This document shows positions 26,215-63,071 of a DNA stretch of 64,000 nt, piece after piece. Position 1 is the stretch's first letter. Each line of letters opens with the position of its first letter. The DNA is taken from the IMG/VR virus record IMGVR_UViG_3300025655_000032, positions 3,244 to 67,243 of that record, one strand, 5' to 3'. The notes beneath the pieces were generated by a model. That model ran no database searches. It had not been told where the DNA came from and worked only from the letters and a program-made list of their open reading frames with translations. This stretch comes from a virus. Both the position numbers and the translations under genes were made by a program.

Positions 26215-26446
26215 AGTGTACCCCCTTGTTTAGTGCGTCGAACTTCGGAGTGCGGGGTGCCCCCACACTACGAAGTGGTCGATCAATGGCTGTGCGAGGA
26301 ACACGAGGGTGCCCGTCCTTGGACACATAGTGGTGTATGTGGTTTTGTCGCAGCCAGCCGATCTGCTTACTGGGGTAGCGATAGCCGGTGAGAAAAATGA
26401 CCTCATCTAAAGACAACAAGGTTTCAAAAAGACCCTTTATGGTCAT
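26192..26446 (-). CDS. Putative excisionase (DUF4224-like)
   Basis: LS.DEV..LTGY..PSKQ..WL…G.P.V pattern; overlaps integrase start. Confidence 0.75.
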   Translation of the reverse strand: MTIKGLFETLLSLDEVIFLTGYRYPSKQIGWLRQNHIHHYVSKDGHPRVPRTAIDRPLRSVGAPRTPKFDALNKGVHYAPKTPY

Positions 26447-26457
26447 TAGAATGTCCT

Positions 26458-26709
26458 TTATGGTGGTTTTTTGTCAAGCGTTATGCCGTACTGTTCGCCT
26501 CGGGCAATGTTCCACTTGCGTTTTTCTTTCTGCTCGTTTCGATCAGGGGCGGAAATTCCGATACGAAGTTGCCCACGGCTAACCTCTAGCACTGACACAT
26601 AAAAGCATTCTCCAGGTTGAACAATCAACGGTTCGTTGTTTTTAGGCTCAATAACGATGACCTCTCCCGGGCGTCGTGATAAAACAAGACCAGGACGTAT
26701 TTTCTTCAT
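26458..26709 (-). CDS. csrA: Divergent CsrA/RsmA-family RNA-binding translational regulator
   Basis: LVLSRRPGEVIVI…VSVLEVSRGQLRIGISAP…IARGE aligns by eye with CsrA MLILTRRVGETLMI…VTVLGVKGNQVRIGVNAP…VHREE, with two insertions. Confidence 0.85.
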   Translation of the reverse strand: MKKIRPGLVLSRRPGEVIVIEPKNNEPLIVQPGECFYVSVLEVSRGQLRIGISAPDRNEQKEKRKWNIARGEQYGITLDKKPP

Positions 26710-29199: not shown

Positions 29200-29216
29200 A
29201 ATCGCTCCTTTGTGAG

Positions 29217-29417
29217 CTAGAGGACGCGCTTGGCGTCTTGATAGAACGAGCGACCCGTCGTAGGGTTAACGCTTATGATCTCACGACGTACACGAGGCAT
29301 GTCACCTGCCACGGAGGCGGGTTTCATAACCTCTCTCGAGATATAAGAGCGCTCGTTGGGATCGATCTCGTGCGCGCGCAAGGCGCGGCGTAAGGCTTTG
29401 GCCTTTTTGCCTCTCAT
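29217..29417 (-). CDS. Small basic hypothetical protein
   Basis: MRGKKAKALRR…; RBS inside a variant hairpin. Confidence 0.65.
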   Translation of the reverse strand: MRGKKAKALRRALRAHEIDPNERSYISREVMKPASVAGDMPRVRREIISVNPTTGRSFYQDAKRVL

Positions 29418-29507
29418 AACGATCTAGTTCCTTTATGAACAGTCGATGGTCAGGCCCGATAATCCACAGATTGATCGGGGGGAACGAAATCTCGGGCCAG
29501 GATATGC

Positions 29508-32870: not shown

Positions 32871-32896
32871 GAAACGCTCCTTTATGAGCGGTAGCT

Positions 32897-35907: not shown

Positions 35908-35980
35908 AGTGCGCTCCTTTGTGAGCTAGGAGGGGCGATACAACTCCTTGCTATACAAGTGTATCGCCCGAGGAATCGTA

Positions 35981-37476: not shown

Positions 37477-37495
37477 GATATAACTCCTGTATGAG

Positions 37496-37882
37496 TTAAG
37501 AAGTAGCGCGAAGACTGATCGTCTTCTTTTCGTAGGGCTCAACGCCCGGGACCGACTGACCGGCACGTGCGTCGAGCATGTCACGGTAAGCCGTGGCCGA
37601 AGGGCGCCGCTCTAACATGTAGAGTGCGTCTTCCTGCCTAATAAATTTGTAGAACTCGTCCCAATCGGTGACGGTGGGTACCACGCGAGTAGCCAGGCTA
37701 GCCGTGTAGGCGCCGTTGTTCAGGCGCTGTATACCCATCTTGGAGAGCAGCTCGATGAGCTCCAGTTCGACCTCGTCGCGAGAGGCTTTGAGCTCATCAG
37801 CTTCGGCGTTCTTCTTCTTGATGCGGTCTCGCAAGACCGCCAGGCGTTTTATCAATACGGCGGGGTTCTTAGTACGTGGCAT
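37496..37882 (-). CDS. Conserved phage replication-module protein
   Basis: Coiled coil plus V.DWDEFYKFI…LERR…VPGV. Confidence 0.6.
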   Translation of the reverse strand: MPRTKNPAVLIKRLAVLRDRIKKKNAEADELKASRDEVELELIELLSKMGIQRLNNGAYTASLATRVVPTVTDWDEFYKFIRQEDALYMLERRPSATAYRDMLDARAGQSVPGVEPYEKKTISLRATS

Positions 37883-37910
37883 TTTGGATCACCTTTATGT
37901 GATGAGGGTC

Positions 37911-40811: not shown

Positions 40812-42257
40812 TTAAGTACGGACATTGCGGCGCTCCTTGAGTAGATCGAGCATCGACACCATGCGCGTGTACTTCGCGCTAAGCGCCTCGTACACCAGCT
40901 CGTCGACGGTGCCCTCTGCGGCAATCATTATGTTCTCAGTCTTGTGTGTCTGGCCCCCGCGATACACACGATGTACACCCTGCTTCATAAAGTCAGGCTC
41001 GTACCGCGGAGAGGCCCAGATCGTAGTGCGCCCACGCGTCAGCGTCAGACCGTGGGCTCCGGTTTGTGGGTGGAGGAGAACAGCGCGGAGATCTCCCGCT
41101 TGAAACGCATCAACGATTCGCGCTCTTTCTTTGTTAGGAACAGACCCATCAATAATTTCATGGCTCAAACCTCGTTTGGTAAGTGCTTTGTGGAGCTCAT
41201 CGCGTTGATGTGCCCAGTTGAAGAACACCACGGAAGCGTCACGCTCTTCCACCAGGTCCGCGACAAGTTCGTAGCGACCAGTGTCAAGGACATGTACTTT
41301 CCCGCCCTCGCCGTAGACAGCGCCAGACGCCACCTGAAGCAACTTATTGCGTAGGACCGCAGCATTGACTGCGGATACGTCACCTTTCGAAAATTCAAGA
41401 AAGGCGTTTTCTTCAAGTTCTTCATAGACAGCCAGCGTCTTCGCAGACGGGGTGAAGGATAGAGTTCGGGAGTAGTTTTCAGGTACATCCATCACCTCAT
41501 CAAATTGGTGGCGTATCGTAATATCACGCAGCATAAAGGAAACAACTTCCTCTATACCCTCTTTATCGCGCCACTGCGTGAAACGACCCCGCCGCACGTC
41601 GACTTGTGTGCTATTGCGAAAGGCGGTGAAGCTCGTACCCAGTCGCGCGCCTCTATCCAGCAGCATGACTTGATGCCAAATGTTGGTGATCGACGATGTA
41701 ATAGGCGTTCCAGTCAACGCTGTGCGGTACTTAAAATATTTGCTCACACTTTTGGCGGCGCGAGAACGCTGTGATGTGTGGTGTTTGAAGGCCGTACTCT
41801 CGTCGATGACGAGCGAAGCGTTAGCAGGAAAATGCCGTTTCCACCAACCGGGGGTCTGCTTGTTTAGCCATTTCACACCGTCGGTGTTGATCAGATAGAT
41901 CGGCACGTCCTCTTCGAAGGCGTCAGCGCGGTTTTCAGCAAACGCCGGTGAAACAGGTAGGGTAGGTGTGAACTTACGAACGTCAGCCACCCAAGCGGGC
42001 AGCATCAACGATTTAGGGCAAACAACAAGCAGCTTCTCGCTAATACCGGCTGACAAACGCTCCGCAAAGACGTCCAAGTGGCCACGGGTTTTACCAGTGC
42101 CGGGGTCCGACGTATCGAATACCACCGCGTTATCACGAGAGAACTCAAGCGTTTGTTGCTGGTGCGCCCAGCGCTTCGGTATCCCCTGGGATAGCTCGAT
42201 AGTGAGTCGCTCTTTGGCGGTATCCAAAGAGTTTTGAGCAGCCACCAGCGTTGACAC
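40812..42257 (-). CDS. SNF2-like superfamily 2 helicase
   Basis: GTGKT, IDEST, LTGTP, HGLTLT, RVYRGGQ; AGGAGG RBS before GTG 42257. Confidence 0.88.
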   Translation of the reverse strand: MSTLVAAQNSLDTAKERLTIELSQGIPKRWAHQQQTLEFSRDNAVVFDTSDPGTGKTRGHLDVFAERLSAGISEKLLVVCPKSLMLPAWVADVRKFTPTLPVSPAFAENRADAFEEDVPIYLINTDGVKWLNKQTPGWWKRHFPANASLVIDESTAFKHHTSQRSRAAKSVSKYFKYRTALTGTPITSSITNIWHQVMLLDRGARLGTSFTAFRNSTQVDVRRGRFTQWRDKEGIEEVVSFMLRDITIRHQFDEVMDVPENYSRTLSFTPSAKTLAVYEELEENAFLEFSKGDVSAVNAAVLRNKLLQVASGAVYGEGGKVHVLDTGRYELVADLVEERDASVVFFNWAHQRDELHKALTKRGLSHEIIDGSVPNKERARIVDAFQAGDLRAVLLHPQTGAHGLTLTRGRTTIWASPRYEPDFMKQGVHRVYRGGQTHKTENIMIAAEGTVDELVYEALSAKYTRMVSMLDLLKERRNVRT

Positions 42258-44277: not shown

Positions 44278-44389
44278 GACTCGTACCTTTATGTACGCGG
44301 CTTACGAAGTATTCTATTAAAAAACAGTCATTTGATCAACAAAAAATGAACGTTTTTCTGACGTTTTTGACTAGACTTATGCATAGAAT

Positions 44390-46714: not shown

Positions 46715-46776
46715 TAAACAGCTCCTCTTTTATGAGTAGTCGGGGTTTGGGTCAGGTACCCCGTAACCTGTTGGAG

Positions 46777-46971: not shown

Positions 46972-47066
46972 GATGGGGTACTCCTTTGTGAGTAAAGTAA
47001 ACCCCATACTCCTTTGGTGTATGGGGACATACCCCATTATCGCATATTAGCGATTACTTATAAACC

Positions 47067-47636
47067 TTATCGCCACCCTTCTGAGGAGCCCATGATGGCA
47101 AGAATCTTCTGCGCATGTTCAGCCTGATGAAGCGCGTCGTACAACGCATTATGGCGCTTAGTATGCGAGCCCTCCACCTCGTCAGCCGGGACACGTGGGA
47201 ACAGCGCAGCCAATGTACGATAGCAACGGTCGGAGCGGTAGGACCAAGGGCGTCGCAGTCCCACGCGCTCGTAAGCACGGGTGAGCAGCACGTTGTCGAA
47301 CGTCGCGCCGTTACCCCAGATATGAATCGTACGACCACCGGACTGCGAGCGCAGCCAGTCGGTGAAACGTTCTAGGGCCTCGTACAGCGATACGGCACCT
47401 TCGAACAACGCGCTTCGGGCCTCGTTAGACTGCTTGAACCACCACTCAATCGTGCTGGCATCCACCGTAGCACCGGACTCCAACGCGCTTTCGAGCGATA
47501 CGTTCTGGTAGAAGCCCTGTGTCAGCGAGCCGTCGTCAGGGTTCACAGTGTCGAAGCGCACCGCTCCAATAGAGAGGATAGCAGCGTCGGGCCCCGTGCC
47601 CAGCGTCTCAAGGTCCACCATAAAGTTACTGTTCAC
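47067..47636 (-). CDS. DEDDh 3'-5' exo(ribo)nuclease (Rv2179c / exonuclease VIII-like)
   Basis: MVDLETLG, WGNGATFD, HNALYDA. Confidence 0.85.
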   Translation of the reverse strand: MNSNFMVDLETLGTGPDAAILSIGAVRFDTVNPDDGSLTQGFYQNVSLESALESGATVDASTIEWWFKQSNEARSALFEGAVSLYEALERFTDWLRSQSGGRTIHIWGNGATFDNVLLTRAYERVGLRRPWSYRSDRCYRTLAALFPRVPADEVEGSHTKRHNALYDALHQAEHAQKILAIMGSSEGWR

Positions 47637-48417
47637 TGGGTGGCTCCATAAAGATAAAGTGGCGTTTCAGTTCATCAGGGAACTGTTCGTGATCCTTTGG
47701 ATGCACACCAAAGCCGGACATAAAGAAGAGCATCATGACAATAGCAGAGAGCTCTTCGAGCGTAATGTCCTCGGCCGGCGCGTAGGCGTACATACCCTGC
47801 GAAGGCGGTTCGTACGGCTGGTTAGTGTGTGGGTTTATGATGCTCACTGGCTTCCTCTTGCGTGCGCTTGTGGTCAATAATAATCGCAAGTATCTCCATC
47901 GCCTTCTCGTCCCGCAGGCACGCGGCGTCGAAAGACGCAAAGAAGTACTCAATGGTGCGTGTCAGCTGCTGCACGCTGTCGTGCGTCTCGTAGCTCAAAG
48001 TTCTCGCGCTCCAGGCGTTTAATGATGTGTAAGAGCACCAATAGATGCTTTTTAATGTCACTCGGGCTGTCGACTACGGTCTGCGCCTCGCGCTTTGCCC
48101 ATGCGACAGCCTCTTCTTCGGTCGGAAGACGCATTGGCAGTACCTCACGGCGATGTAGAGCAACGTGACACCCGAGACCGCCATAGCGGCCAGTAGTGGA
48201 TGCACCAGCTCTGGCGGACCATTGAACATCACGCCACACGGTACTCGTGGTGCAGCCAGTCCCAACGCGGTATAGGGCAGGGCACCCACTCGCTACCGAC
48301 GGGGGACTTCGTACGTCGCTCGATGCGTGCGCCGTCGACGTACTGCTCCATGACCCGAATATGGTCTTCGGTGAACATCTCCGATTTCGTACGGGTTACA
48401 TCTGCCCAGGTCTTCAT
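47626..48417 (-). CDS. Small hypothetical genes (about 47626-47847, 47822-47952 region, 47949-48134, 48229-48417)
   Basis: Co-oriented short ORFs between primase and exonuclease; boundaries uncertain. Confidence 0.35.
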
Positions 48418-50843
48418 TACGCCGTCTCCTGCACTTCGCGCCTCGCGCGTATCTCTGCTACACCGGGCATCGCCTTAGGCTGCAGCGATGCACGGTAGCG
48501 TTCCAAATCGTCCTCACTGAACGTCCAATCGATCTCAAGACCACGCGCCGTCGTCCCGTTAATACGCATAGGCGTAAAGCGAAGCCCAAACTTACCCGCC
48601 GTGCGCGTAAACTTGGTCGGTCGCATGGACCAGTCGACCGCGAAAGTGAACAGCGCAGCCACATCGTCACGTGGCAGTCGGACCACAGAGACACCCTGCT
48701 GCAAGTACTCGTAGATGTACTGCAGCACCGCTTTGTAGTTCGACATAGCTGTGATGAACTGCGAGGTCACGTTCGTCTCGGACACGCCGCTGGGCAACAG
48801 GTCCAAGAAGTACGTAAAGTTACCTTTCTCAATAGCCCGCACAACTTCCTCGGGCGAGGATGTCGTCGTCTCCTGGATAAAGCGCTTGGCCTCGTTGTCC
48901 AGCGGCGTGGTAGCGTTGTTTATGTCCACGTCGTAGGCCTGCAGGTAGTTAGCAAACGCTTGAAGCTCGTGGGGCAGGCGCTTGAACTCATCCGCGCCCA
49001 TCACCTCAATGAGCTTACGCTCCTGACGAGGAGCGACGTTCATACGTCGATCTTCGAACTCGATCAGCACAGGATTGCGCTTGTTGGAGAAGAACAGGAA
49101 CGCTGTGTAGTTCCGCTCGTTGTACGGGTTCTTGTTCATCTCACGGATCAGCAGCCGATCCTCGGTGATCCAGTTCTTGAGCTTCATGGTCACCGCCGCA
49201 ATGTTCGGCATACCGTCGGTGTCGGACTCATCGACAGCAAGTACCTGTGCACAGCGCAGGTACTGATTGAAACGCTCCCCGAGCGTCTCCACCGTAATCT
49301 CACGCGCTTGCTCAACCCCGAAGATAGGCGTGAGCACCTGCTCCATGAGGGTGCCCTTGCCAGTGCCAGGGACTCCGTGGAGCACCCACGCCGTCTTAGG
49401 CTTGAGTCCGTACTGCCATATATAGGCGAGCCAGTTGAGAAAGTACTCATAGGCCTCAGCATTGTCGCCCGTAACATGGCGAAGAACTTTTTGAATTGTT
49501 GGGGGGACATCACCAGGAGCACCCCCGGCCGTACAAGAAATACGGTAGGGCGACGGCTGATAAAGGTTGATACGCCGGCGCGCAGGATCGTAGAATACAG
49601 CTTCCGTTGGATCGAAGACCGTCTCCATAATCGGAATGAAAGCGGGGTCCTCCAGGCCGTGCTGCGCGCAAAAGTCAGTGATTTGCTCACGGCTCTTGGC
49701 CGGATCGAGTACACGCGTCTCAGTCGCCGGGTCCCACGTCCCTTTGAGATAAGCACCGGACTGCTTCTCTGTGAAGTAGAAGTACTTCGTCCCCTCCTGG
49801 TTGGAGAGGTCGGAGTGGTTGGCTGCCTCCTGACGGCGCGACGAAACGCACTCTGTGTAGTAATCAGGGAGCAGGTCTTTCGTGAGGTACGCAGGCTCGC
49901 CTTTGAAATTCTGAATAATCTCAAAGTTGTTCTCCGGGTGGTAGTAGCCCCAGCTGTCGCCACCGTTCAAGTTAAGGTACACAAAGCCACGCTCGTGCTT
50001 GACACCGGTGACCGTCGCCGTGTCGGGATTACGCAGCACAAAGACGTTGTACTTGGCGACGTGCTTTGTGCTCTCACGCTTACGACGCAGCCCGGCCTTC
50101 GCGCGTAGCTCGTCGCGCGTCGTGTCCTTCAAGGTGCTAACTTGTGGGAGGTCGGCCTGCGCCAGCGCCGCGGTGATGTTGAACGTGGGCTGTGTGCGCT
50201 CGACCAGCTGGATACGCTCCTCGGTGTACGGATCGTCCATACCCACGAACTTCGGAGGAGCGATGTAGATAATACGGTGGTTCTCGGCCAGGCTGATGTC
50301 CAGCGGCCACTTGATACTGTTACCGGTCTTGGTGAGCTCCAGCGACGCCCGTAGCGTGGGGTTCGTCAAGTTGAGCCACATGAGCCACTGCTTGAGCTGC
50401 GCCTCACCGATGGCAGCGTTAAGCAGCAGAAAGACATGTGCGCGCAGACCCGGCTTGACACCGTGGCTAGCAGAGTACTGCACCACATGGCTGACGTCGT
50501 TCATGCCGAGCGCCGCCAGCAGCGCGTCGATAGTCGGTATCGTCGCACCGTCAACGTCAAGGCACAGCCACTGCGTCGGCGCATCCTTGACGATGCGCCC
50601 CGCGCGTGACTCGTCGATCAGCGGTGTGGAGTAGTTACCCTTGACAATGGCGTGCCCACGCGAGGCGTGGGCTACCATCAGGGTGTAAAGGTGTGCTATG
50701 TCGGTGACGTTCTCTTCAAAAGAGGAGAACAAGTTATAGTGCTGGTAGTAGTTGGACGAATCAATCGCCCCGGTCGTGGAATTGTGACAGAACTCCTTGG
50801 ACAGCAGCCGTCCGGCTGCCTCCCGCACAAACGTCACCTTCAT
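48417..50843 (-). CDS. Primase-helicase (AEP-like N-terminus, SF3/DUF5906 helicase)
   Basis: LDVD…HVF N-terminal motifs; GVPGTGKG Walker A, VDE Walker B, FSN, DRR. Confidence 0.85.
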   Translation of the reverse strand: MKVTFVREAAGRLLSKEFCHNSTTGAIDSSNYYQHYNLFSSFEENVTDIAHLYTLMVAHASRGHAIVKGNYSTPLIDESRAGRIVKDAPTQWLCLDVDGATIPTIDALLAALGMNDVSHVVQYSASHGVKPGLRAHVFLLLNAAIGEAQLKQWLMWLNLTNPTLRASLELTKTGNSIKWPLDISLAENHRIIYIAPPKFVGMDDPYTEERIQLVERTQPTFNITAALAQADLPQVSTLKDTTRDELRAKAGLRRKRESTKHVAKYNVFVLRNPDTATVTGVKHERGFVYLNLNGGDSWGYYHPENNFEIIQNFKGEPAYLTKDLLPDYYTECVSSRRQEAANHSDLSNQEGTKYFYFTEKQSGAYLKGTWDPATETRVLDPAKSREQITDFCAQHGLEDPAFIPIMETVFDPTEAVFYDPARRRINLYQPSPYRISCTAGGAPGDVPPTIQKVLRHVTGDNAEAYEYFLNWLAYIWQYGLKPKTAWVLHGVPGTGKGTLMEQVLTPIFGVEQAREITVETLGERFNQYLRCAQVLAVDESDTDGMPNIAAVTMKLKNWITEDRLLIREMNKNPYNERNYTAFLFFSNKRNPVLIEFEDRRMNVAPRQERKLIEVMGADEFKRLPHELQAFANYLQAYDVDINNATTPLDNEAKRFIQETTTSSPEEVVRAIEKGNFTYFLDLLPSGVSETNVTSQFITAMSNYKAVLQYIYEYLQQGVSVVRLPRDDVAALFTFAVDWSMRPTKFTRTAGKFGLRFTPMRINGTTARGLEIDWTFSEDDLERYRASLQPKAMPGVAEIRARREVQETA

Positions 50844-50997
50844 AAGAACACCTTTATGTGCATGAGCCCGCTTTTATGCGGGGAAGATCGTATTATACAC
50901 GCCCCAGCCTTTATGCCAGCGCAGACTCTAGCACGCGCACAGGCTCAACAAGTGAGTCTGCCTGTCAGATAAATCTGATAAAAAAGTAAGAAAACCC

Positions 50998-51375
50998 CTA
51001 ATACCAAGCCGAGTACGACACCGCATTTCCGGCCTCCACCTCATCCAGCGCCAGATTGACGGCCTCCAAGTCATTGTTCATGCACTCGGCGGGATCGTAC
51101 TCGGTCGTACCGAAGAAAAAACCGCTGACGGGCACCAGGTTGTGCTCCAGGATGTCGGCCTTCAACCTCAGGAGGTCCAAACGCGTGAGGTCAAGAGCGG
51201 TGCAGTTGAACTCCGGGTCGTAATCGGCGTCCTGAGCGTGCCTGCTGTCGTACAGCTTCGCCATCCAGTTATGCAGGGCGTTGTGCTTACGCCAGTAGAA
51301 CAGCTCCTCGTAGACCTTATCGCCCGTGTCGTTGATGGCACCCCTGTGGGTGTGCATGTACATGTCAAGGCCCAT
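50998..51375 (-). CDS. Conserved phage hypothetical protein
   Basis: MGLDMY…YWRKHNALH.W…FNC…GFFFG pattern. Confidence 0.75.
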   Translation of the reverse strand: MGLDMYMHTHRGAINDTGDKVYEELFYWRKHNALHNWMAKLYDSRHAQDADYDPEFNCTALDLTRLDLLRLKADILEHNLVPVSGFFFGTTEYDPAECMNNDLEAVNLALDEVEAGNAVSYSAWY

Positions 51376-51589
51376 GGTAGTACTCCTATATGAGTGTGTA
51401 AGGCTCTCTCAGCCGCTTGTGCGTCCAGGCACAGCAGGAGGGCTGTTGAGCCTGCAAACAGCTGAGAGAGGTTCTGGTGGCGTTAGCACGCCTAATCATG
51501 ACCTTAGTCCGACGCCCGACGCCCGTAGTGCAAGGTGTGTGGGGGTTTGGGCATTACACTTCGGACGTCGGACGTCGGGGGTTGAGGAA

Positions 51590-51960
51590 GAAAGGTAGTA
51601 AAAAAGGAAGAAAACGATTAAATAGGAGAATAAGAGTCCTAAATAGTAGGAACTTATAGTCTTATAAGGAAGCTAAGTAGTATTTGTTACACTTTGAGGG
51701 CTAAAAGTGTAACGGAGGAGGAGGAATAAAAAGTATAAAAGGCTTCTAACTTATTGTATTATATATAATATATATTTATGTTACACTATTACAGTTACAC
51801 TTATATATACTATATCTATATTTTTTATTTTTTATAAATTATGAAAAAGTACAGCCGGACTTTTGAAAAGTGTAATTCTGTAACCCTCGCCTAACCTTCT
51901 GTTTCTGCAAGCAAATCGGCGTTACACAATCGGCTGTACTACTTTCATTCTCCCTTTTTT
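51590..51960. repeat. AT-rich region with GTTACAC repeats (candidate replication origin)
   Basis: GTTACAC at 51686, 51780, 51794, 51921; inverted GTGTAAC at 51707 and GTGTAAT at 51870; near-pure A/T tracts; upstream of primase-helicase. Confidence 0.65.
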
Positions 51961-51968
51961 GACCCTGT

Positions 51969-52181
51969 TTAGGCGTTTTCTTCGCCTATTTCCTCTACTG
52001 TGGCCTGGTCAGGCGCCTCAAAACAGGAAGGAGCTTCTGAAAATTGCGCTATTGGGGCGTTCGGACCCCCCCACCAGTGCTCCGCGCTTCGCTGTCGCTC
52101 TTCGGTCAGTGCCCTGGGACACCTTTCGAAGTCTTGACATTCGCCAAATGGGCAGAATGCCGTGTCTAAGTATGATATCAC
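51969..52181 (-). CDS. Small Cys-containing hypothetical protein
   Basis: GGAGG RBS in variant hairpin before GTG. Confidence 0.6.
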   Translation of the reverse strand: MISYLDTAFCPFGECQDFERCPRALTEERQRSAEHWWGGPNAPIAQFSEAPSCFEAPDQATVEEIGEENA

Positions 52182-52240
52182 AAATAACCCTCCTTTGTGA
52201 GGTTGTGTACTCCGTTGACCACAGGCTCCCCTCCCTTGTT

Positions 52241-52270
52241 AAAAAAGAGAGCCGGGAGGGGACCCGGCTC
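52241..52270 (-). terminator. Intrinsic terminator downstream of RNA polymerase gene
   Basis: - strand GAGCCGGG-TCCCCT-CCCGGCTC followed by TCTTTTTT. Confidence 0.75.
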
Positions 52271-52348
52271 GCAAAGCCCCCGGGAGGGGGCAGGAGGAGA
52301 CTACCAATGAATTCGCACGGGCCCCGGGAGGGGCCCATCTAACACCTG

Positions 52349-54721
52349 CTACCAGCGCAGCAACACGCGGCTGTGCCGTGCACCGTCGCCAATGACGCTG
52401 AGCTGCACCTGCTCCACGGCGGCAAGCGCCGCGGTGAGCTCTTCCGCCGCCGAGGGCACCGGGTCCAGATCAGACACCTGATAGGTGCCATCTACCCAGT
52501 GGGTTCCGAACAGCGCCGTCTCCAGGTGGTTGCTGCGCATTCCCAGCTCTTCGAAGAAGGCGCCACTCACCAGCTCTGCCGCCACCCGGTTGGGGCCGTA
52601 GGCGACGATAGCCGCCTCGGAGAGCTCTCCTTGGCGCACAGCCAGACGCACCATCAGCCGCACCTCACGGATGCGCTCCTGGGCCTGGTAGCGGGCGTCT
52701 TCGTCGCTCTCATCCAGCTCCACATAGGCACGCACCGCCTCGCGGTACAGCCGGCTGTAGTGACGCACCAACGCCACCGCTGCGGCCGGATCTTCCTCAC
52801 CCAGCAGCACGGCCTGCTTGGCCGCCGTACGCAGCCGATCGGGCAGCTCCGCCCGATCACCACGCAGCCACTGCCACTTCCTGAAGAGCTCATCCAGGAT
52901 TTGGATGCGCTCGAGCATTGCCGCTTCGATGTCAGTCTCCGGGGTACGCCCCGCAGCATGGACCGTGAGCCCGCGCCACGCGGCCAGCTTGGCCTCACCA
53001 CCAACAGCCTGCTGCACCTTGTGCATCTCATCCAGCAGGAAGCCCTGCGCCGGCATCACCGCCTTGGCCGCATCACGCAGCTCCTTCTCCTTGCTGCGCG
53101 CCGCATTGGCGTCCACCGCATGCTTCTGCGCCTCCACGCAGGTCTGACTGACCTGCTGGCCCAGCGCCGCCAGCTCTTCGGTGAGCTGCTCCACCTCGGC
53201 CAGGCGCATGTTGTTCATCATGCTCGGCCCGAGGCGCGAGGCGACACCGTTGGCCATCTCTATCATGATGGCTTCAACAGCGGCGTTCTGCTGGAATTCC
53301 ACCATCGGGACGCCACGCCCGAGGCGCAACGACTCGGGCTGCTCCACGCGCGGCTTGAGCGCAAACCGGGGCTCGAAGACTACCGCCGCATCACCATCGA
53401 AATCACCGCCGGCCGCCTTCCAGCGCGGGTCACCGGGGTTGATCACGATACCGGTACCGTCATCGCGCCCCTGCCACTTGATCTCACCCTCCAGCGTGTA
53501 CAACGCCATGCTGCTGGCGTCCGGCATGGCCGGGTCACGGTGCAGCATCAGCAACCCAGGAGCAGGGTGCTTCTTACTATGGAAGCGCTTGTAGGTGTCG
53601 GGCAGCAGCATCACGCTGCCCATCGGCACCAGCGCGCTTCCATAGACGGTCTCACGCGCCTTGCGCTTGGACGGCTCGAACTGCTTGAGCCACTTCCAGG
53701 GCGCATACTGGCGCATGAACAGCGCCGCCGGCACGCCTGCGCGGATCTTGCGGCTCTCTTCAACGGAGAACACATCGTCCACCGACAGCCGCTTCAGTCG
53801 GCCGTTGTCCGCCCTGATGACCTCCGCCGGGTTCTCAGCCCCGAACAGCACCGCCTGATAGTTCAGGCTGGGGCGTTCGCTTGGCATCGTACGCACCGCG
53901 GCGAACTCCCCCACCTGCGCACCCGTCGGCATGGTGCCACCAAACTGGGCCTCGTTCACCAACCCCTCTTGCTCGGTACAGCCGTTCACCACGAACGGGG
54001 GACGTACCATGCCTTTGGCGTAGTAGTAGATATCGTCCTCGTGGATACGCAACGTGCCGGGGCGAGGACCGTCCATCTTGCGGCTGATCATAACGGTCCC
54101 GTCGTTCTCCTTCTCGAAGAACCGCTCAACGGGTGTGCTGAGCTGCTGCATGAGTCCGCCGGGGCGCTTCATGAGCACTCCCATGCGCACCAACACATGG
54201 GTGTTGGACCCAATCATCTCTTCGACATTGAAGTGCGCGAACACGCGGTCGCGCAGCTCCTTCGCCGCGAAGAAGTACTTCCTGCCCACGCAAGCGACAG
54301 GATAGCGGTCTTGCTGCCGCATGTAGCCGAACAGGGCGTAGAGGGCCTCGTCTCTCGGCTCCATCTCGAAGCGCGCCATGACACCCGCCATCCAGGGGCG
54401 CACGCGGATATTTTCCGCTCGCTTGATGACTCGGAACATGCCCCCGGCTGCGTCATAGCCGGTGTATAACACCTGATCCGCCCCCACAGGCTCCTTGTGC
54501 GTCACCACAAGGACGATACGCTTGTTGAACCGATAGACAGCAGCGTCCACCGCCATCTGTGCCAGCTCATCTTCGTCCGACACGCCATCGATCATGGCCT
54601 CGCGAATCCCCATGCTGGGGACCACGCTGCCGTCTACTCTGACCTCACCGTTCAGCAGGTCGGCGATGGTGCTTGACAGCAGCCGTACGTCTACCACGTT
54701 GTTGTCGACGATCTTCTTCAT
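52349..54721 (-). CDS. Single-subunit two-barrel RNA polymerase (YonO / cellular RdRP-like)
   Basis: Motifs in the expected order: NDGTVMIS, LR…AKGM, LNYQ, HRDP, GGDFDGD (metal-binding), VEAQKH. Confidence 0.8.
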   Translation of the reverse strand: MKKIVDNNVVDVRLLSSTIADLLNGEVRVDGSVVPSMGIREAMIDGVSDEDELAQMAVDAAVYRFNKRIVLVVTHKEPVGADQVLYTGYDAAGGMFRVIKRAENIRVRPWMAGVMARFEMEPRDEALYALFGYMRQQDRYPVACVGRKYFFAAKELRDRVFAHFNVEEMIGSNTHVLVRMGVLMKRPGGLMQQLSTPVERFFEKENDGTVMISRKMDGPRPGTLRIHEDDIYYYAKGMVRPPFVVNGCTEQEGLVNEAQFGGTMPTGAQVGEFAAVRTMPSERPSLNYQAVLFGAENPAEVIRADNGRLKRLSVDDVFSVEESRKIRAGVPAALFMRQYAPWKWLKQFEPSKRKARETVYGSALVPMGSVMLLPDTYKRFHSKKHPAPGLLMLHRDPAMPDASSMALYTLEGEIKWQGRDDGTGIVINPGDPRWKAAGGDFDGDAAVVFEPRFALKPRVEQPESLRLGRGVPMVEFQQNAAVEAIMIEMANGVASRLGPSMMNNMRLAEVEQLTEELAALGQQVSQTCVEAQKHAVDANAARSKEKELRDAAKAVMPAQGFLLDEMHKVQQAVGGEAKLAAWRGLTVHAAGRTPETDIEAAMLERIQILDELFRKWQWLRGDRAELPDRLRTAAKQAVLLGEEDPAAAVALVRHYSRLYREAVRAYVELDESDEDARYQAQERIREVRLMVRLAVRQGELSEAAIVAYGPNRVAAELVSGAFFEELGMRSNHLETALFGTHWVDGTYQVSDLDPVPSAAEELTAALAAVEQVQLSVIGDGARHSRVLLRW

Positions 54722-54912
54722 GATCATGCCTCTTGTATGAGTTGCTGTCCGCAATGCGCTTGCAGACAGATAGACCGACTCGGCAGGCGTTGCCTCGTCG
54801 GATAATGTGGCCAGCCCATAGGGCTAGCCGTATAGGCCCCGGGAGGGGCCGTTAAGGCTCAACAGGATGGGGATAGCACCTCCTCTATGAGGTAGAAGAC
54901 TGGCCTACAGAC

Positions 54913-55014
54913 TTACTGCAAGAACGCAGCAAGGAAGACCAGCTCGAGGATTAGCAGGGCCAGGGACAACCCGCCCAGGAGTAACTGCCAGACAGACTCA
55001 GGCCGTTGCGGCAT
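54913..55014 (-). CDS. 33-aa single-pass membrane peptide (below ORF-track cutoff)
   Basis: AAGGAGAGGCAT-ATG; MPQRPESVWQLLLGGLSLALLILELVFLAAFLQ. Confidence 0.55.
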   Translation of the reverse strand: MPQRPESVWQLLLGGLSLALLILELVFLAAFLQ

Positions 55015-55065
55015 ATGCCTCTCCTTTATGAGAGTACCGACGTCCCTGTCAGCGGTGGTTTCGGA

Positions 55066-56126: not shown

Positions 56127-56216
56127 GATAGTCTCCTAAAGGAAAGTAAATGTACCGAACTGGTACATAAGTAAACCACCCTCCGCCACGCGTAAGCGTG
56201 GCGAAGGGCGCGGCTG

Positions 56217-56558: not shown

Positions 56559-57118
56559 GGGGAATACTCCTATATGAGTAAGGGAAAGTACCTAGTCGGT
56601 ACAGTAAAAACCCACCCCTCGCGCCACGTAAGTGGCGCGAAAACAACACATACAGGCAGGTATACTCGAGGGCAGAGGTAAGAAGAAAACAAAAGGAGAA
56701 CAAAGCGTACGCAAATACGTACGGTTGTTCGGTGGCGCAAATGTTAGTGGATATCACCCGTCGCCCGAAGCCCGTCGCCCTACGCGCGAGGCACGATGCA
56801 CCGAGCGCATAGCGCGAGGTGCGAGGTGCCGAGTGCTTAGGGCGACGTGCTACGGGCGACGGGCATCGCGCTTCGCGCGATGCTCACGAGGAGCGGAGCG
56901 CCCGTCGTGCGGAGCGCCTAGCGCGACGCACGATGGGACTCCGCTCCTCGTTTGCCGAAACCGAAACCGAAGTGGGGGTGGCCTGGAGGGTACGGGGTGG
57001 GGAGGGGGGGATGACTCGATCGAATCCGGGGATGCCCCCTACCCCCTTAAAGAAACAGTTTCCCAAAAAAAAATTATAAAAAATTTTCCTACTTTATCCG
57101 AATCATATTCGTTACTCG

Positions 57119-58435: not shown

Positions 58436-58733
58436 GCTTGCGTGTATTGTCAGTGGGAAGGGCACCTATGCCGTGGCGCAGCCCCTCGCTTTTACAAACC
58501 AGGATGAAGGGGAGGAGGTCAGGCCGTTCTTCGCTCTTGACCATGACGAGGCGCAAGTACTGATGGACGACCTGTGGCGGTGCGGTATACGCCCGACTGA
58601 GGGGGCGGGTAGCGCCGGCGCGCTGGCCGCCACACAGGCGCACCTTAAGGACCTGCAGCAGCTGATGGTGTGGGCCTACGACCCTAAGAACGGTCCGTGG
58701 GTCATGCAGCAGGGGGAGAGCGAGGATGGCTGA
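58395..58733 (+). CDS. Hypothetical protein
   Basis: AQ.LMDDLW.CGIRPTEG.GSAG…HL.DL pattern. Confidence 0.6.
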   Translation: MLRAKSGNWNGTIELACIVSGKGTYAVAQPLAFTNQDEGEEVRPFFALDHDEAQVLMDDLWRCGIRPTEGAGSAGALAATQAHLKDLQQLMVWAYDPKNGPWVMQQGESEDG

Positions 58734-61700
58734 GGATACACCCGAGCAGCCACCCGAGCAGCCACCGCCACCCGAGGAGAAGGACAGCGCCCTTAGTCCT
58801 CAGTACACCGACAGCGGGCGGCGTATATACGACCGTTGGCCGCTGGGGCAGTACGTGTGCAACATGTGCGAGCGTGAGCTCGGCGTCAGCGACTTCAGGA
58901 GTAACAAGACGACGTGCATACTGTGTCAGGCGCAGGAGTCGTCTGACAAGCTGGCGCGCGCGGTGGCGAAGCGTAAGGCCACACGGCGCTACGCGAACAA
59001 GGTGGAGCGCGGTAAGGACCTTAACCGCCGGTCTAAGGCGGCGGCCAAGAAGAAGCGTGCGGAGGTGGCTAAGGAGCGTGCGGCGAAGGTGCGTGAGGCC
59101 GAGGCCACCGTCGCCAAGCAGGTCAAGATTATAGAGCAGATCCACGACGTTAAGCTGCGGGAGGAGGCGAACGCCAAGCAGAAAGAGCGGCTCGCCGAGG
59201 CCGAGGCGCGTAAGGAGCTGGCCAGCCGTGAGCTGGCCCGGCGTCGTCTGCTGCACTACGTTGAGCGGAACGTGCCGGGGTACGAGGCTGGGTGGGTGCA
59301 CGAGGACATCTGTCGGCGCCTGGAGCGCTTTATGCACGACGTCGAGGATCGTAAGAGTCCGCGCCTTATGATATGGGTGCCGCCGAGGCACGGTAAACAG
59401 CTGCCCCATAGCACGCCAGTGCTGACACCCTCTGGGTGGCGCACTCACGGCGAGCTAGAGGTGGGTGATGAGGTGTTTGGGCCAGATGGCAGTATCCGGA
59501 CTGTGGTCTCCGTATCGGCTCCTTCGGTGGCCGAGTACGAGCTTGAGTTTACCAACGGGACGCGGATCAAGGCCCACGCTAATCACGAGTGGACTGTGTA
59601 CCAACGCGGGAACGGCCGGGTTCGTGGTTGGAAGACCGTCGAGACGCGTTACCTTGCAGGGCGTAGAGTTTGGAGCGGTGGTCGGGCTGTTTTCCAACTC
59701 CCCCCTGTCGACGCGCTGCAATTTCCTTCTCGCGTATATGAAATGCCTCCCTACGTCCTCGGCGCATGGCTTGGTGACGGGTCCTCAATAGCCCCACTGA
59801 TAACACATGGTGCGGTAGATACGGCCGTCATTAGCGCGGTTTGCCAGTACGGCTATACGATGACGAGCCAAAACGTCCACGCAACCACCGGCGTGCGGGG
59901 ATCGCGGTTCGGTAAGGTTGTGGGCAATCCGTCTCGTATGGCCACCGAGCTTCGGTCGCTGGGGGTGTGGGGGGACAAGCACATACCCGACGCCTACAAG
60001 AGGGGAGATATAACACAGCGGTTGCAGCTACTCGCCGGTTTGATCGATACCGACGGGCACGTAGAACCGGCCACCGGTCGCGTTCGTGTAATAACGGGGT
60101 CTCGGCGCCTGGCTGAGGACATTCATGAGGTGGCCACTACACTGGGTTTTGCGCCGTATATAACATCCCAGCCCCCAAAACTTAGTTCTAGCGGTATCCA
60201 GGGTACACAGACCGTATACACCATAGGTTTTCAGCCGACCCAATACATCCCTACTCGAATGCCTCAGAAGCAGGTACTGCGTTTTGCCCCTCGACGCCGC
60301 GTTGGTATTCGTGCGGTTCGTCGTTGTGAGCCGGAGGTCGGTCGGTGTATACAGATTGACGCTGCCGACGGGCTCTACCTTGTCGGCAAGACCTTGATCC
60401 CCACCCACAACAGCGAGATCGCCAGTACGCAGTTCCCAAGCTGGGTGCTGGGGCATCACCCTGACTGGGAGTTTATAGCGACCAGCTACGCTCTCGACCT
60501 GCCATTAGGCTTCAGTCGTAAGATCCGCGCCCGTGTACAGTCGCCTGAGTACAGTGTGCTGTTCCCTAAGACCGAGCTGTCCAAGGACTCGCAGAGCGCA
60601 GAGAGCTGGCGCACTACGGCAGGCGGAGGGTTCCGCGCGGCAGGTGTGGGTGGTGGTATCACCGGTATGGGCGCACACATACTGGTCATTGATGACCCGG
60701 TCAAGGACCAGGAGGAGGCCGACTCTGAGACCGTGCGTGAGAAGGTGTGGTCGTGGTTCGGCTCAACGGCCTACACCCGACTGGCACCGGGTGGTGGTGT
60801 ACTTATTATTCAGTGTATGACGGGTGACACGCCCGTGCTTATGGCTGACGGTACTGAGCGACCGCTTTCAGCTGTGCGCGTCGGTGATTATGTGGCGACG
60901 TACGACGAGGGACGACTGCGGCACGCCAGAGTGTGTCAGTGGGGCTCTAATGGTGATGATTCTATCCTAAAAATCACGACGAACTCGGGTAAAATAGTAC
61001 GGGCTAACGGGAGACACCCGTTCCTGGTTTCTCATAAAGGAGAGCTCGAGTGGATACAGGCGAAGGATTTACAACCGACCCAGCAAATCGTCGCCGTAAA
61101 GGACAGCGTGGTAAGTGGTCAGGGGTTGTTTGCCAAATGGAAGGTTGCGACGAGCCCGTCTCCGCTCGCGGCTATTGTAAATCGCACTATAACAAAGTTA
61201 AGTGGGCTTCGGGCAATCGCCCCCCTTCAGCTAATCCGACGTCTCGGCGCGAGGCGCACCTTAAGCACCGCTACGGTATCAACCTTGCGGAGTACAACTC
61301 CCTGCTGGACAAGCAAGGTGGTCGCTGCGCTATTTGCGGCGAACTTCCCACTTCCAGCAATACCCGTGCGCACTGGGGGAACAAGCTTTGCGTCGACCAC
61401 TGCCACGGTTCTGGAGAGGTTCGCGGATTACTCTGCAACGACTGTAACCTCGCTGTTGGGTACGCTAAAACAGAAGCTACAGCGCGCGCGGTTGCAGATT
61501 ACCTCCGACTTCACTCTGGACCCTATCGTAAGGATTGAGGCTGACGGAGTGGCCGAGGTCTTTGACGTCCAGATAGAGGGGACGGAGAATTTTATAGCTA
61601 ACGGGCTAGTCAGCCATAATACTCGCTGGCATGACGATGACCTCAGCGGGCGTATTGAGCGCACGATGATGGAGGGCTTTAAGGAGTTCGAAGTGCTGTG

Positions 61701-62715
61701 CGTGGACGCCGAGCAGGCGAAGGCCGAAGCCCGTAGTGAGGAGGACGTCGCTGCTGCCGCACGTATGCACTACGAGGCCTACAAGTTTCGAGAGACTATC
61801 GACAGGTGGCATATCGTCAAGTACCCAGCCATCGCAGTGCATGATGAGTACCTTAACAAGACCAGCGGTATTATTCAGGTCAACGACGGCACAGCTCCGC
61901 ACGACTTTACTTCTTCATCCTACCGACTGCTGCGTAAAAAGGGCAGGGCGCTTCACCCCGCTCGTTTCCCGCTGACGTTGCTGCAGAAGTACAAGCGCAC
62001 GCTGCAGCCCCGTCACTGGTCGGCACTGTACCAACAGAACCCTGTGCCCGACGAGGGCGCGTTCTTCACTAGCGACATGTTCCGCTTCCGCCCTACACTC
62101 CCCGACTGGCGTGAGATGACCGTCATGTGTGCGTGGGACTTGGCGGTTGGTGTACGTACAACGAACGACTGGACCGTCGGTGTAGTGGGTGCGCTGGACT
62201 GGGAAGATAACCTGTGGATACTCGACATGGTCCGTGGGCGTTGGCAGACTCACGACATAGCGCGTTATATCCACGATACACATCTGCGTTACGACGCGTC
62301 GGTGACGGGTATTGAGAAAGGGCAGTTGGAGCTGGCCATTATGCCGCAGCTGCAACGTATCATGAAGGAGAAGAACCAGTACATTGCGCTGGCCGAGGGG
62401 CAGGCCGCGCTCAAGCCTATCACTGACAAAGTGATGCGTGCACGCCCACTGCAGGGGCGTATGCAGCAGGGTAAGGTGCTATTTCCGTCCGACCAGCCTT
62501 GGGTAGACTCGCTGCGTAATGAATTCTTACGTTTCCCCACCGGCACCCACGACGATATTGTTGATGCCTGCTCCTGGGTGGCGCGTATGTTTATGAATAC
62601 GCAACCTCCTACTCGCCCTCGCGCTCAAAGCGAAGGGTTACCACAAGGTGTTACCAGTTGGAAAGACCGCCTGCGTGGTATAATGCAAGAGCCAAAGAAC
62701 TTCATGTCACGGTGA
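58726..62715 (+). CDS. terL: Terminase large subunit containing two inteins
   Basis: PPRHGK|S Walker A, IDDPVK Walker B, Q|TRWH.DD, LYQQNP, WDLA, HDDIVDA. Confidence 0.92.
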   Translation: MAEDTPEQPPEQPPPPEEKDSALSPQYTDSGRRIYDRWPLGQYVCNMCERELGVSDFRSNKTTCILCQAQESSDKLARAVAKRKATRRYANKVERGKDLNRRSKAAAKKKRAEVAKERAAKVREAEATVAKQVKIIEQIHDVKLREEANAKQKERLAEAEARKELASRELARRRLLHYVERNVPGYEAGWVHEDICRRLERFMHDVEDRKSPRLMIWVPPRHGKQLPHSTPVLTPSGWRTHGELEVGDEVFGPDGSIRTVVSVSAPSVAEYELEFTNGTRIKAHANHEWTVYQRGNGRVRGWKTVETRYLAGRRVWSGGRAVFQLPPVDALQFPSRVYEMPPYVLGAWLGDGSSIAPLITHGAVDTAVISAVCQYGYTMTSQNVHATTGVRGSRFGKVVGNPSRMATELRSLGVWGDKHIPDAYKRGDITQRLQLLAGLIDTDGHVEPATGRVRVITGSRRLAEDIHEVATTLGFAPYITSQPPKLSSSGIQGTQTVYTIGFQPTQYIPTRMPQKQVLRFAPRRRVGIRAVRRCEPEVGRCIQIDAADGLYLVGKTLIPTHNSEIASTQFPSWVLGHHPDWEFIATSYALDLPLGFSRKIRARVQSPEYSVLFPKTELSKDSQSAESWRTTAGGGFRAAGVGGGITGMGAHILVIDDPVKDQEEADSETVREKVWSWFGSTAYTRLAPGGGVLIIQCMTGDTPVLMADGTERPLSAVRVGDYVATYDEGRLRHARVCQWGSNGDDSILKITTNSGKIVRANGRHPFLVSHKGELEWIQAKDLQPTQQIVAVKDSVVSGQGLFAKWKVATSPSPLAAIVNRTITKLSGLRAIAPLQLIRRLGARRTLSTATVSTLRSTTPCWTSKVVAALFAANFPLPAIPVRTGGTSFASTTATVLERFADYSATTVTSLLGTLKQKLQRARLQITSDFTLDPIVRIEADGVAEVFDVQIEGTENFIANGLVSHNTRWHDDDLSGRIERTMMEGFKEFEVLCVDAEQAKAEARSEEDVAAAARMHYEAYKFRETIDRWHIVKYPAIAVHDEYLNKTSGIIQVNDGTAPHDFTSSSYRLLRKKGRALHPARFPLTLLQKYKRTLQPRHWSALYQQNPVPDEGAFFTSDMFRFRPTLPDWREMTVMCAWDLAVGVRTTNDWTVGVVGALDWEDNLWILDMVRGRWQTHDIARYIHDTHLRYDASVTGIEKGQLELAIMPQLQRIMKEKNQYIALAEGQAALKPITDKVMRARPLQGRMQQGKVLFPSDQPWVDSLRNEFLRFPTGTHDDIVDACSWVARMFMNTQPPTRPRAQSEGLPQGVTSWKDRLRGIMQEPKNFMSR
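59398..60411 (+). mobile_element. Intein 1 (class 3, Gln at position 1) with LAGLIDADG endonuclease, 338 aa
   Basis: QLPHSTPVLT…HEW…LGAWLGDG…LAGLIDTDG…RCIQI…PTHN|S; inserted in Walker A. Confidence 0.88.
60814..61620 (+). mobile_element. Intein 2 (Cys1…HN|T), 269 aa, no in-frame endonuclease
   Basis: CMTGDTPVLMADG…NGRHPF…VFDVQIEGTENFIANGLVSHN|T. Confidence 0.9.
61050..61538 (+). CDS. Endonuclease VII-family homing endonuclease nested out of frame in intein 2
   Basis: RYGI…Y..LL..QGGRCAIC…LCVDHCH..G.VRGLLC..CN..VG; own AAGGAG RBS before GTG. Confidence 0.85.
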   Translation: MDTGEGFTTDPANRRRKGQRGKWSGVVCQMEGCDEPVSARGYCKSHYNKVKWASGNRPPSANPTSRREAHLKHRYGINLAEYNSLLDKQGGRCAICGELPTSSNTRAHWGNKLCVDHCHGSGEVRGLLCNDCNLAVGYAKTEATARAVADYLRLHSGPYRKD

Positions 62716-63071
62716 ATTGCGCATGGAAGTGCCTGTCTGTATCAACATAGACCTGCAAGTGGATGATGTTGCCCTAGCACCGTCAGTACTGGCGGAAGCG
62801 CTCCACGCCATGTCCGTCGAACTCAGCGATACGCAGAGTGTCCCCGAGGCGTTCACTTCCGTTGACGCATGGGTAGATTGGCCGTACGACAGCATGGACC
62901 CTTTATTTCGATGATCGCGTCTATTAAACAGCTATTGCACGCTTTGTACGGTTCATGGCGTTCGCTGCTGCTGTCGTTACAACAGGTGCAGCATAGAAAT
63001 ACGGCGATAAAGCGCGTCCAGACGTTATTCAAGCGGCGTTGACGCTGCAGACCATACCATAAAGGGTATCG

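Follow-up and report, generated by a model that had tools for sequence, protein, structure and literature searches.

What reads a small hairpin that recurs over the ribosome-binding sites of a phage genome, and what does it do there? The question is raised by a 64,000-nucleotide (nt) stretch of DNA from an uncultured freshwater phage (hereafter the window), which spans positions 3244-67243 of an IMG/VR virus record (IMGVR_UViG_3300025655_000032; 67,243 bp, rated as complete), and in which a C-G pair repeatedly closes a hexaloop of the form A-Y-A-N-A-R, most often just in front of a start codon. On balance, we lean towards reading these hairpins as operators in the translation-initiation regions of messenger RNA (mRNA), recognised by a putative sequence-specific factor; this judgement includes the sub-case in which that factor would be a CsrA-like protein encoded by the phage itself.

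All hairpin coordinates listed in the original prediction, which had been made from the sequence alone, were recovered, and the hairpins form a genuine family that chance does not explain. On the two strands of the window together, the octamer CAYANARG was counted 50 times, against 24.6 ± 5.0 in 300 dinucleotide-preserving shuffles and 25.0 ± 5.7 (maximum 36) in a second set of 100. Hairpins of the form C-AYANAR-G with a stem of at least 3 bp, closing pair counted, number 23 against 1.65 ± 1.25 (maximum 6) in the 300 shuffles, those with at least 4 bp number 17 against 0.41 expected, and those with at least 5 bp number 10 against 0.09. Among all hexaloop hairpins of at least 4 bp in the window, the top loops are ATAAAG (8) and ACAAAG (4-5). 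Three of the 23 pattern matches were judged to be chance and dropped, one lying inside the exonuclease gene (44076-44087) and two antisense to late genes (21498-21509 and 2873-2884). A covariance model built from the 20 aligned copies and run over the window with filters off returned its input at 16.5-26.4 bits together with one bulged copy (23960-23979) at 17.7 bits, the next match lying far lower, at 11.6 bits. The family therefore has 21 copies, essentially without a grey zone.

Across these 21 copies, the first loop position (L1) is always A, L2 is T in 17 and C in 4, L3 is always A, L4 is A in 16, T in 2, C in 2 and G in 1, L5 is always A, and L6 is G in 18 and A in 3. Positions L1, L3 and L5 were preset by the search pattern; the covariance model gave no off-pattern copies. 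Conservation is confined to a core of about 12 nt with the consensus nnCTCATAAAGGAGnn, flanked by variable sequence, and nothing is conserved 5' of the stem. The last loop bases and the 3' arm form the Shine-Dalgarno (SD) sequence, with AAGGAG present in 14 copies. The triplet GGA falls across the junction of L6, the closing G and the 3' arm in 13 of the 21, and within the loop in none. Apart from transfer RNAs (tRNAs), no Rfam family was matched in the window.

The stems were said to differ in sequence while staying paired, and this was borne out. In the 20 aligned copies, 90% of stem cells are paired, against 64% when the 3' partners are redealt (a value reached in 0 of 500 shuffles), and 29 cells are changed on both sides where 9.8 are expected. 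Sliding the partner by 1-3 columns leaves 33-50% paired. The first three stem pairs were part of the selection; the fourth, which was outside it, is paired in 18 of the 20 copies by five pair types. The pairing was also measured with the SD preserved: the loop, 3' arm and start stayed fixed, and shuffling was confined to the six nucleotides that precede the closing C. Under this control, at least two additional pairs are formed by 17 of 26 start-linked octamers, where 5000 shuffles gave 2.6 ± 1.5 and never more than 10, and at least three by 14, against 0.92 expected. Since pairing exceeds the SD-preserving shuffles, the 5' arm is selected to pair with the SD-bearing arm, whatever its letters (GAG, GTG, GTAC, GGTAT, GAAC, GCGGG).

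Placement is equally regular (Table 1). All 21 copies lie on the sense strand of the adjoining gene, in agreement with the earlier claim of coding-strand placement, and 18 of them within the minus-strand early arm (26-57 kb). The claimed proximity to start codons also holds: the start (ATG 16, GTG 2) of an open reading frame (ORF) of at least 30 amino acids (aa) lies 4-13 nt past the closing G in 18 of the 21, against a background rate of 19% (binomial P 8e-11). The start-less exceptions are the orphan at 54878-54893, the upstream tandem copy at 50867-50882 and the copy at 26431-26444 just inside xis. The distance to the start varies between 4 and 12 nt, in an SD-like way, and the hairpin's 3' arm is the sole SD of most of these genes. 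Two tandem pairs occur at 20-21 nt, one in the primase leader and one at the xis start, where the pair brackets the start codon. Only one coordinate needed correction: the plus-strand hairpin reported at 61029-61044 is present, but its Watson-Crick pairing extends over 61030-61043, the fifth pair being G.U. The family is lineage-specific, with stems of 3-6 bp in the initiation regions of early and middle genes.

Table 1. Members of the C-AYANAR-G hairpin family and related octamers, in window coordinates. Distances are from the closing G to the start codon; bits are covariance-model scores.
Element	Position	Strand	Context	Bits
TACTC-ATATAG-GAGTA	56565-56580	-	ATG of 113-aa ORF 10 nt past closing G	23.0
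CTCTC-ATAAAG-GAGAG	55019-55034	-	ATG of 33-aa ORF 54913-55014 8 nt past	23.6
ACCTC-ATAGAG-GAGGT (orphan)	54878-54893	-	no start; followed by GC-rich hairpin 54835-54850; upstream of polymerase gene	
CTC-ATACAA-GAG	54730-54741	-	before gene of candidate 790-aa YonO-like polymerase; weakest copy	16.5
CCTC-ACAAAG-GAGG	52189-52202	-	GTG of 70-aa ORF 10 nt past; about 50 nt after hairpin 52249-52270	
ACTC-ATATAG-GAGT	51382-51395	-	before 125-aa ORF	
CCCGC-ATAAAA-GCGGG	50867-50882	-	upstream tandem copy; few nt past sigma-70-like promoter 50919-50892; -9.2 kcal/mol	
CAC-ATAAAG-GTG	50849-50860	-	fourth pair G.U; ATG of 808-aa primase 7 nt past	
Third CATAAAGG octamer (weak candidate)	50904-50919	-	upstream of primase; stem needs two G.U; overlaps -35	8.9
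TACTC-ACAAAG-GAGTA	46979-46994	-	before 64-aa ORF	
CTC-ATAAAA-GAG	46725-46736	-	before 135-aa ORF	
CGTAC-ATAAAG-GTACG	44282-44297	-	before 259-aa exonuclease gene; just 3' of sigma-70-like promoter 44339-44311	
ATCAC-ATAAAG-GTGAT	37888-37903	-	before 128-aa DUF7307 gene; TATAAT ends about 9 nt 5' of stem	
TAACTC-ATACAG-GAGTTA	37481-37498	-	before 245-aa ORF	
GCTC-ACAAAG-GAGC	35913-35926	-	before rIIA; TAG abuts 5' arm	
CGCTC-ATAAAG-GAGCG	32875-32890	-	before Ogg-type glycosylase gene; best score	26.4
GTTC-ATAAAG-GAAC	29427-29440	-	before 66-aa ORF	
GCTC-ACAAAG-GAGC	29204-29217	-	before B12-dependent ribonucleotide reductase gene; TAG abuts 5' arm	
GACC-ATAAAG-GGTC	26431-26444	-	begins just after ATG of DUF4224 (xis-like) gene	
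Stemless CATAAAGG octamer	26455-26462	-	SD of xis-like gene; 21 nt upstream of copy 26431-26444	
Bulged C-ATAAAG-G, then GAGTA	23960-23979	+	before 70-aa ORF, end of late arm	17.7
TCTC-ATAAAG-GAGA	61030-61043	+	inside terminase intein; GTG of Endonuclease VII ORF 9 nt past	
ATACC-ATAAAG-GGTAT	63054-63069	+	before 229-aa ORF	

Such a hairpin might need no dedicated factor. As a cis element, it would mask the SD so that translation is coupled to upstream ribosomes, or would protect the 5' end of the transcript, and the loop would be an extended SD or an S1-type enhancer. The bases L4-L6 and the 3' arm do spell AAGGAG, and at 29204, 35913 and 37481 the stop codon of the preceding ORF falls within the 5' arm or next to it. 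Furthermore, hairpins precede 12 of the 23 minus-strand genes with an upstream gap of at least 19 nt and none of the 19 overlapping or nearly abutting ones, by rough gene calls that missed three hairpin genes, and in three cases the hairpin would stand at the very 5' end of host transcripts. However, the closing C and the A-Y-A of L1-L3 are present in 21 of 21 copies and lie outside the SD, and AGGAG starts outside the family lack the C-AYA bases. The genome has 36 AGGAG sites followed by a start; AYAN stands in front of 12, and 11 of these are family members, so the AYANAR loop is not a generic ribosome-site context. Besides the family, AUGGAR is the only recurrent hexaloop at starts, and no other loop masks an SD in the genome. 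Neither the orphan nor the upstream copy of the tandem serves as an SD. The hairpins are also weak, with stabilities of -2.3 to -9.2 kcal/mol (median about -4.6), and would mask poorly without a partner. We therefore regard a purely cis-acting role as rather unlikely.

An mRNA operator accommodates more of these features. The variable, SD-like spacing, the use of the 3' arm as the SD and the copy inside a reading frame all favour RNA as the target. Sigma-70-like -10 elements lie within about 10 nt 5' of three copies (50919-50892, 10/12 matches; 44339-44311, 9/12; and a TATAAT near 37920); these three would thus lie in host-polymerase transcripts, which would again favour an RNA operator. By analogy, the tandem pairs at 20-21 nt would suit a dimeric RNA binder, and weak stems are what protein-operated hairpins would be expected to have. 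We infer that the active form is RNA rather than DNA, that some trans-acting factor reads it and that the outcome is repression. In the mechanism proposed, the hairpin alone would only half-mask the SD, because its stability is weak, and would present the constant A-rich loop to a reader that recognises its sequence; once bound, this reader would lock the hairpin and exclude the 30S subunit. About 18 genes could be switched or timed together in this way, in the mode of T4 RegA, CsrA/RsmA and the coat proteins of RNA phages.

Several observations weigh against an mRNA operator, the last of them drawn from a relative. In a 71-nt context, only 12 of the 21 hairpins have a pairing probability above 50%. 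The first stem mismatch is G.U in 4 cases and A.C in 1, a difference that is not significant, so an RNA and a DNA hairpin are not told apart by sequence alone. Positions L4-L6 of the loop are partly explained by the SD itself, and all sequencing runs with near-identical DNA are non-RNA. The early arm contains terminator-like GC-rich hairpins on the minus strand at 56643-56616, 56177-56210 and 52270-52249; a hairpin gene comes within about 25-50 nt after both the first and the last of these, and neither interval has a sigma-70-like site. Finally, the early starts of the related record L015 (G001), an 18.5-kb fragment rated 27% complete, carry ACAGAGGAGAG, mostly without a stem, and linear AYAN-AGGAG recurs there. 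The positions recorded in L015, all on its minus strand, are 4619-4638, 5098-5107, 9028-9039, 9230-9241 and 9072-9081. Stems are limited to CTC/GAG at the primase orthologue and a U.G-containing 3-bp stem at the preceding gene, other starts being stemless. Because L015 has the linear motif largely without the stem, the stem may be secondary to a linear signal.

L015 is the only related record in which the polymerase gene was found, and its gene order (polymerase, small genes, primase) is that of the window. Other relatives are remote. A megablast search with the primase-to-polymerase segment (48417-54754) found nothing among 50,697 phage records, six IMG/VR loci matched in a primase scan, at 28-38% identity, and a portal scan gave remote matches only. 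The nearest named phages by primase are the Pseudomonas KPP25 group (Kochitakasuvirus), at 36% identity. An alignment of the CsrA-like protein found nothing in viral contigs and, in metagenomes, five short contigs (1-5 kb, 37-40% identity) without hairpins; no CsrA was found in G001 (L015, the 27% fragment), G002, G003 or G005. The covariance model was also run over 152 kb from relatives, comprising five IMG/VR records, the five CsrA-bearing metagenome contigs and the initial 34 kb of KPP25 (L002), and no match had an E-value under 0.77. Its best outside match, at 12.5 bits, was the L015 primase ribosome site, CTC-ACAGAG-GAG. A pattern scan of the whole of KPP25 gave one chance-level match.

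As an alternative to an operator, the element could be a promoter or start-site signal for the candidate polymerase of the phage. The protein in question (790 aa, 52349-54721, minus strand) carries a GGDFDGD motif and has no Pfam, PHROG or PDB sequence match, nor a match to PF00940. Five homologues were found among 5.8 billion proteins at 30-47% identity, all with an invariant GGDFDGD and one of them encoded on a 70-kb contig, and the sequence fits a candidate YonO-like two-barrel polymerase. A tblastn search with the protein found nothing among the 50,697 phage records, and pattern and tblastn scans with the protein or its six-row alignment found nothing in viral, genome or metagenome contigs. 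Hairpin promoters have a precedent in phage N4, in which a phage polymerase transcribes middle genes and the host polymerase late genes. In the present phage, late genes carry extended -10-like TATAAT sites, so a phage polymerase serving middle genes is conceivable. The promoter of YonO itself is described as still undefined in PMC5467207.

Such a signal could take the form of a DNA hairpin, as in N4, or follow the design documented for T4 gene e and I-TevI. In the latter, as described in PMC3014915, a promoter lies within the 5' strand of a masking hairpin, so that transcripts lacking the 5' arm are translated and read-through transcripts are masked. Linear AYANAGGAG is enriched only in the two polymerase-bearing records (18 in the window genome and 7 in the 18.5 kb of L015), against 1 in KPP25, 1 in L004, 0 in L005, 0 in L006 and 3 in L009, which lack the polymerase; this comparison of two genomes with five is confounded by relatedness. 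In both records the orphan 10-mer CATAGAGGAG is found upstream of the polymerase gene, in the window within the 54878-54893 hairpin. In addition, the terminator-like hairpins at 56643-56616 and 52270-52249 leave little room for a sigma-70 promoter before the hairpin genes that follow. Against a promoter, the spacing to the start is variable and SD-like, not that of a fixed start site, the 3' arm is the only SD of most genes, and nothing is conserved upstream of the stem. Three copies already stand just 3' of sigma-70-like promoters, one lies within the xis reading frame, one tandem pair is spaced at 20 nt, the polymerase gene itself has a copy in front, and L015 mostly lacks stems. A promoter for the phage polymerase is, in our judgement, unlikely.

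More specific DNA-level and RNA-level models were also rejected. T7-type promoters span about 23 bp (-17 to +6); nothing is conserved here outside the core of about 12 nt, and no T7-like polymerase was found, although the positive controls of the six-frame PF00940 search, which found nothing, also gave no match. Promoters of the N4 virion polymerase, a giant T7-like enzyme, have a 5-7 bp stem and a 3-nt loop, whereas the loops here have 6 nt and the stems 3-6 bp; the 2211-aa virion protein of this phage has no PDB sequence match and only a weak match to DUF6782. An exact k-mer census of the window gave no second candidate promoter motif. A target for a c4-like antisense RNA was dismissed, as the complement CCTTTATG occurs once on the early-arm transcript (41532-41539), inside the helicase frame, and in no intergenic copy. 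A DNA operator for a dimeric repressor was rejected because the half-sites vary and covary, and lambda/P22 boxB because the 21 copies are at start sites.

If the hairpins are mRNA operators, one candidate reader is the phage's own diverged CsrA-like protein. The original prediction held that this protein has an altered specificity and runs a private regulon. It is encoded by an 83-aa gene (26458-26709, minus strand) directly upstream of the xis-like gene and matches PF02599 at 33.5 bits, which passes the Pfam threshold. Among about 40 proteins scanned against Pfam or PHROGs, it is the only recognisable RNA-binding family found, and six-frame searches of the genome for RegA, ProQ, Hfq and CSD found none. 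The protein is a near-orphan. An exhaustive search of 1.84 billion representatives gave a single relative, of 76 aa, besides two long proteins that match it locally, and a word-based search of 5.8 billion proteins matched only the protein itself. Two insertions set it apart from the 76-aa relative, one of 5 aa after beta2 and one of 8 aa, rich in Lys, Arg and Glu, just before a beta5-like segment. CsrA/RsmE chains in the PDB align weakly to its beta3-beta4 core (E 0.1-1). The beta1 segment LVLSRR and the WNIARGE segment (aligned to the Arg44 region) are kept; these we take, from CsrA mutagenesis, to be the segments that contact GGA. Because they are kept, the sequence offers no positive reason for expecting an altered specificity, while the insertion near beta5 may leave room for it.

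The likeness of the two kinds of site is descriptively right. In two studies, SELEX gave the Csr/Rsm consensus CANGGAYG within a hexaloop (10.1101/2020.08.24.265819, 10.1101/2025.05.05.652322). As in Csr/Rsm sites, the loops here are C-G closed hexaloops in 21 of 21 copies with A at positions 1 and 5, overlap the SD, have variable stems and are sometimes paired at about 20 nt, and a CsrA-family gene is present in the same genome. Unlike them, the defining GGA is absent from the loop in all 21, A-N replacing GG, and a separate canonical set exists in the same genome. Hairpins of the form C-ANGGAN-G are enriched in the window (10 with at least 3 bp against 2.15 ± 1.5; 6 with at least 4 bp against 0.57). 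Four tandem CAUGGAR hairpins at 4011-4071 on the plus strand, spaced at 17-18 nt, lie upstream of the capsid gene (array 4011-4076). Other plus-strand C-AUGGAR-G hairpins occur at 4244-4259 (capsid ribosome site), 23165-23180 (over the 23182 gene's ribosome site) and 62719-62732 (start of the 62723 ORF). These canonical hairpins would be natural, orthodox targets for any CsrA, host or phage. The two loops differ only at L3-L4 (GG versus AA), which makes a re-specified CsrA attractive and also unnecessary.

A phage CsrA shifted by its insertions from ANGGAN to AYANAR thus has several points in its favour: it is the sole recognisable RNA-binding family in the genome, both classes of site share the C-G closure, the hexaloop, A1 and A5 (judged against CANGGAYG in 10.1101/2020.08.24.265819), the insertions are absent from its closest relative, a two-faced dimer would fit the two tandem pairs spaced at 20-21 nt, and one of these pairs flanks the xis start directly downstream of csrA. 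On the other side stand the retained beta1 and WNIARGE segments, which align with the parts of CsrA that contact GGA, the presence of canonical hairpins as obvious CsrA targets, and the near-orphan status of the protein. In addition, a GGA-to-GAA change abolishes binding by the CsrAs tested in 10.1101/2025.05.05.652322. L015 has the linear motif, while no CsrA was detected in its 18.5 kb, a weak point given that it is a 27% fragment. The assignment is somewhat disfavoured, and we hold it to be rather doubtful as a sub-case of the operator reading. A still bolder and quite improbable extension would be a two-channel Csr-type code in one temperate phage. In this scheme, (i) the diverged phage CsrA, re-specified to C-AYAAAG-G, would hold about 18 early and middle genes (polymerase, primase, rIIA, nrdJ, xis), (ii) the canonical C-AUGGAR-G loops of late genes, at the 23169 ribosome site and in the array of the capsid leader, would be read by the host CsrA, and (iii) the early-to-late switch and the lysogeny decision would be timed post-transcriptionally, orthogonally to the host.

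A literature search for such start hairpins, which was not exhaustive, retrieved only papers on the start-associated sequences (SAS/ESAS) of cluster K mycobacteriophages. To our knowledge, few genome-wide start signals combine a fixed loop with free stems, and for none of them is the reader known. The cluster K sequences are the closest described analogue. In PMC3203893, SAS are 13-bp GGGATAGGAGCCC elements with an AGGAG core that lie 3-7 bp before mostly ATG starts, in one orientation and in the non-structural half only, their reader being given as unknown. The hairpins of the window are likewise short asymmetric AGGAG elements before starts, in one orientation and in the non-structural arm (here 18 of 21), with complementary outer parts (GGG...CCC in SAS) and with dozens of copies or fewer per genome. 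Unlike SAS, which have fixed flanks, they have a consensus of their own and free, covarying stems, and they belong to another host phylum and phage lineage (here with Kochitakasuvirus-like podovirus kinship by primase). Because the stems vary and only the loop is fixed, they argue more directly than SAS for a folded element.

T4 offers the other comparison. Its RegA protein represses about 30 early mRNAs at their initiation regions, according to PMC3014915. As with RegA and gene e, early initiation regions across the phage would here be under one post-transcriptional control, and hairpins hide the SD. Unlike the hairpins, RegA sites are unstructured and AU-rich around the AUG, and no RegA homologue was found in this genome; the masking hairpins of gene e and I-TevI are few, resolved by late promoters and without a shared loop.

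The family is unusually clean, with 21 copies, no background, covarying stems over the SD and two unusual candidate readers. If the reader is an RNA-binding protein, the system would be a compact orthogonal translational switch and would show that a fold made for reading loops can be given a new target. Should the polymerase be the reader, the hairpins would be the first promoter class for YonO-like enzymes, and if they are merely a cis-acting coupling device, they would be a tidy but ordinary case of SD masking.

The genome around the hairpins is divided into two arms. Near-identical DNA was found in freshwater and estuary metagenome runs, with 20-70% of its words in estuary metagenomes. A plus-strand structural arm occupies about 1-24 kb and again 57-64 kb, and encodes the portal, the capsid, the 2211-aa virion protein and a terminase large subunit with intein and homing-endonuclease domains. 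The minus-strand arm, which extends from about 56.7 kb to 25.2 kb, carries genes for replication and nucleotide metabolism. These include a DUF5906 primase, a family A polymerase, a helicase, a RecB-type exonuclease, a dUTPase, ThyX, the B12 ribonucleotide reductase, rIIA/rIIB and two Ogg-type glycosylases, and the arm closes with the CsrA-like gene, the DUF4224 xis-like gene and an integrase.

Several further features of the two arms were recorded. The terminase large subunit gene (58726-62715, plus strand) is split by Intein_splicing, LAGLIDADG_3 and Hom_end domains; the Endonuclease VII ORF (61050-61538, plus strand) is complete and lies in another frame inside the terminase gene, behind a family hairpin. 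In the early arm, the first early gene and a probable leftward early promoter (about 57150-57123) have the terminator-like hairpin at 56616-56643 between them, and the 33-aa product of ORF 54913-55014 (minus strand) is strongly hydrophobic and below the usual ORF cut-offs. The gene at 47067-47636 (minus strand) has a strong match to an Rv2179c-like 3'-5' exoribonuclease domain (PF16473, 9e-54), and a role of its product in phage RNA turnover is possible. Two early-arm stretches, 51400-51960 (about 560 nt) and 44300-45100 (600-800 nt), contain no convincing genes. Three tRNA genes (His-GTG, Leu-TAA and Ile-GAT-like) lie at 24771-24845 (plus), 24943-25019 (minus) and 44390-44466 (minus), and the His-GTG and Leu-TAA genes adjoin the integrase and may mark the attachment region. 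Finally, the 11-mer GCGGCGGTAGC occurs six times and its 9-mer core ten times, on both strands and within coding regions, at window positions that include 247, 8904, 16447, 28751, 36830 and 39959.

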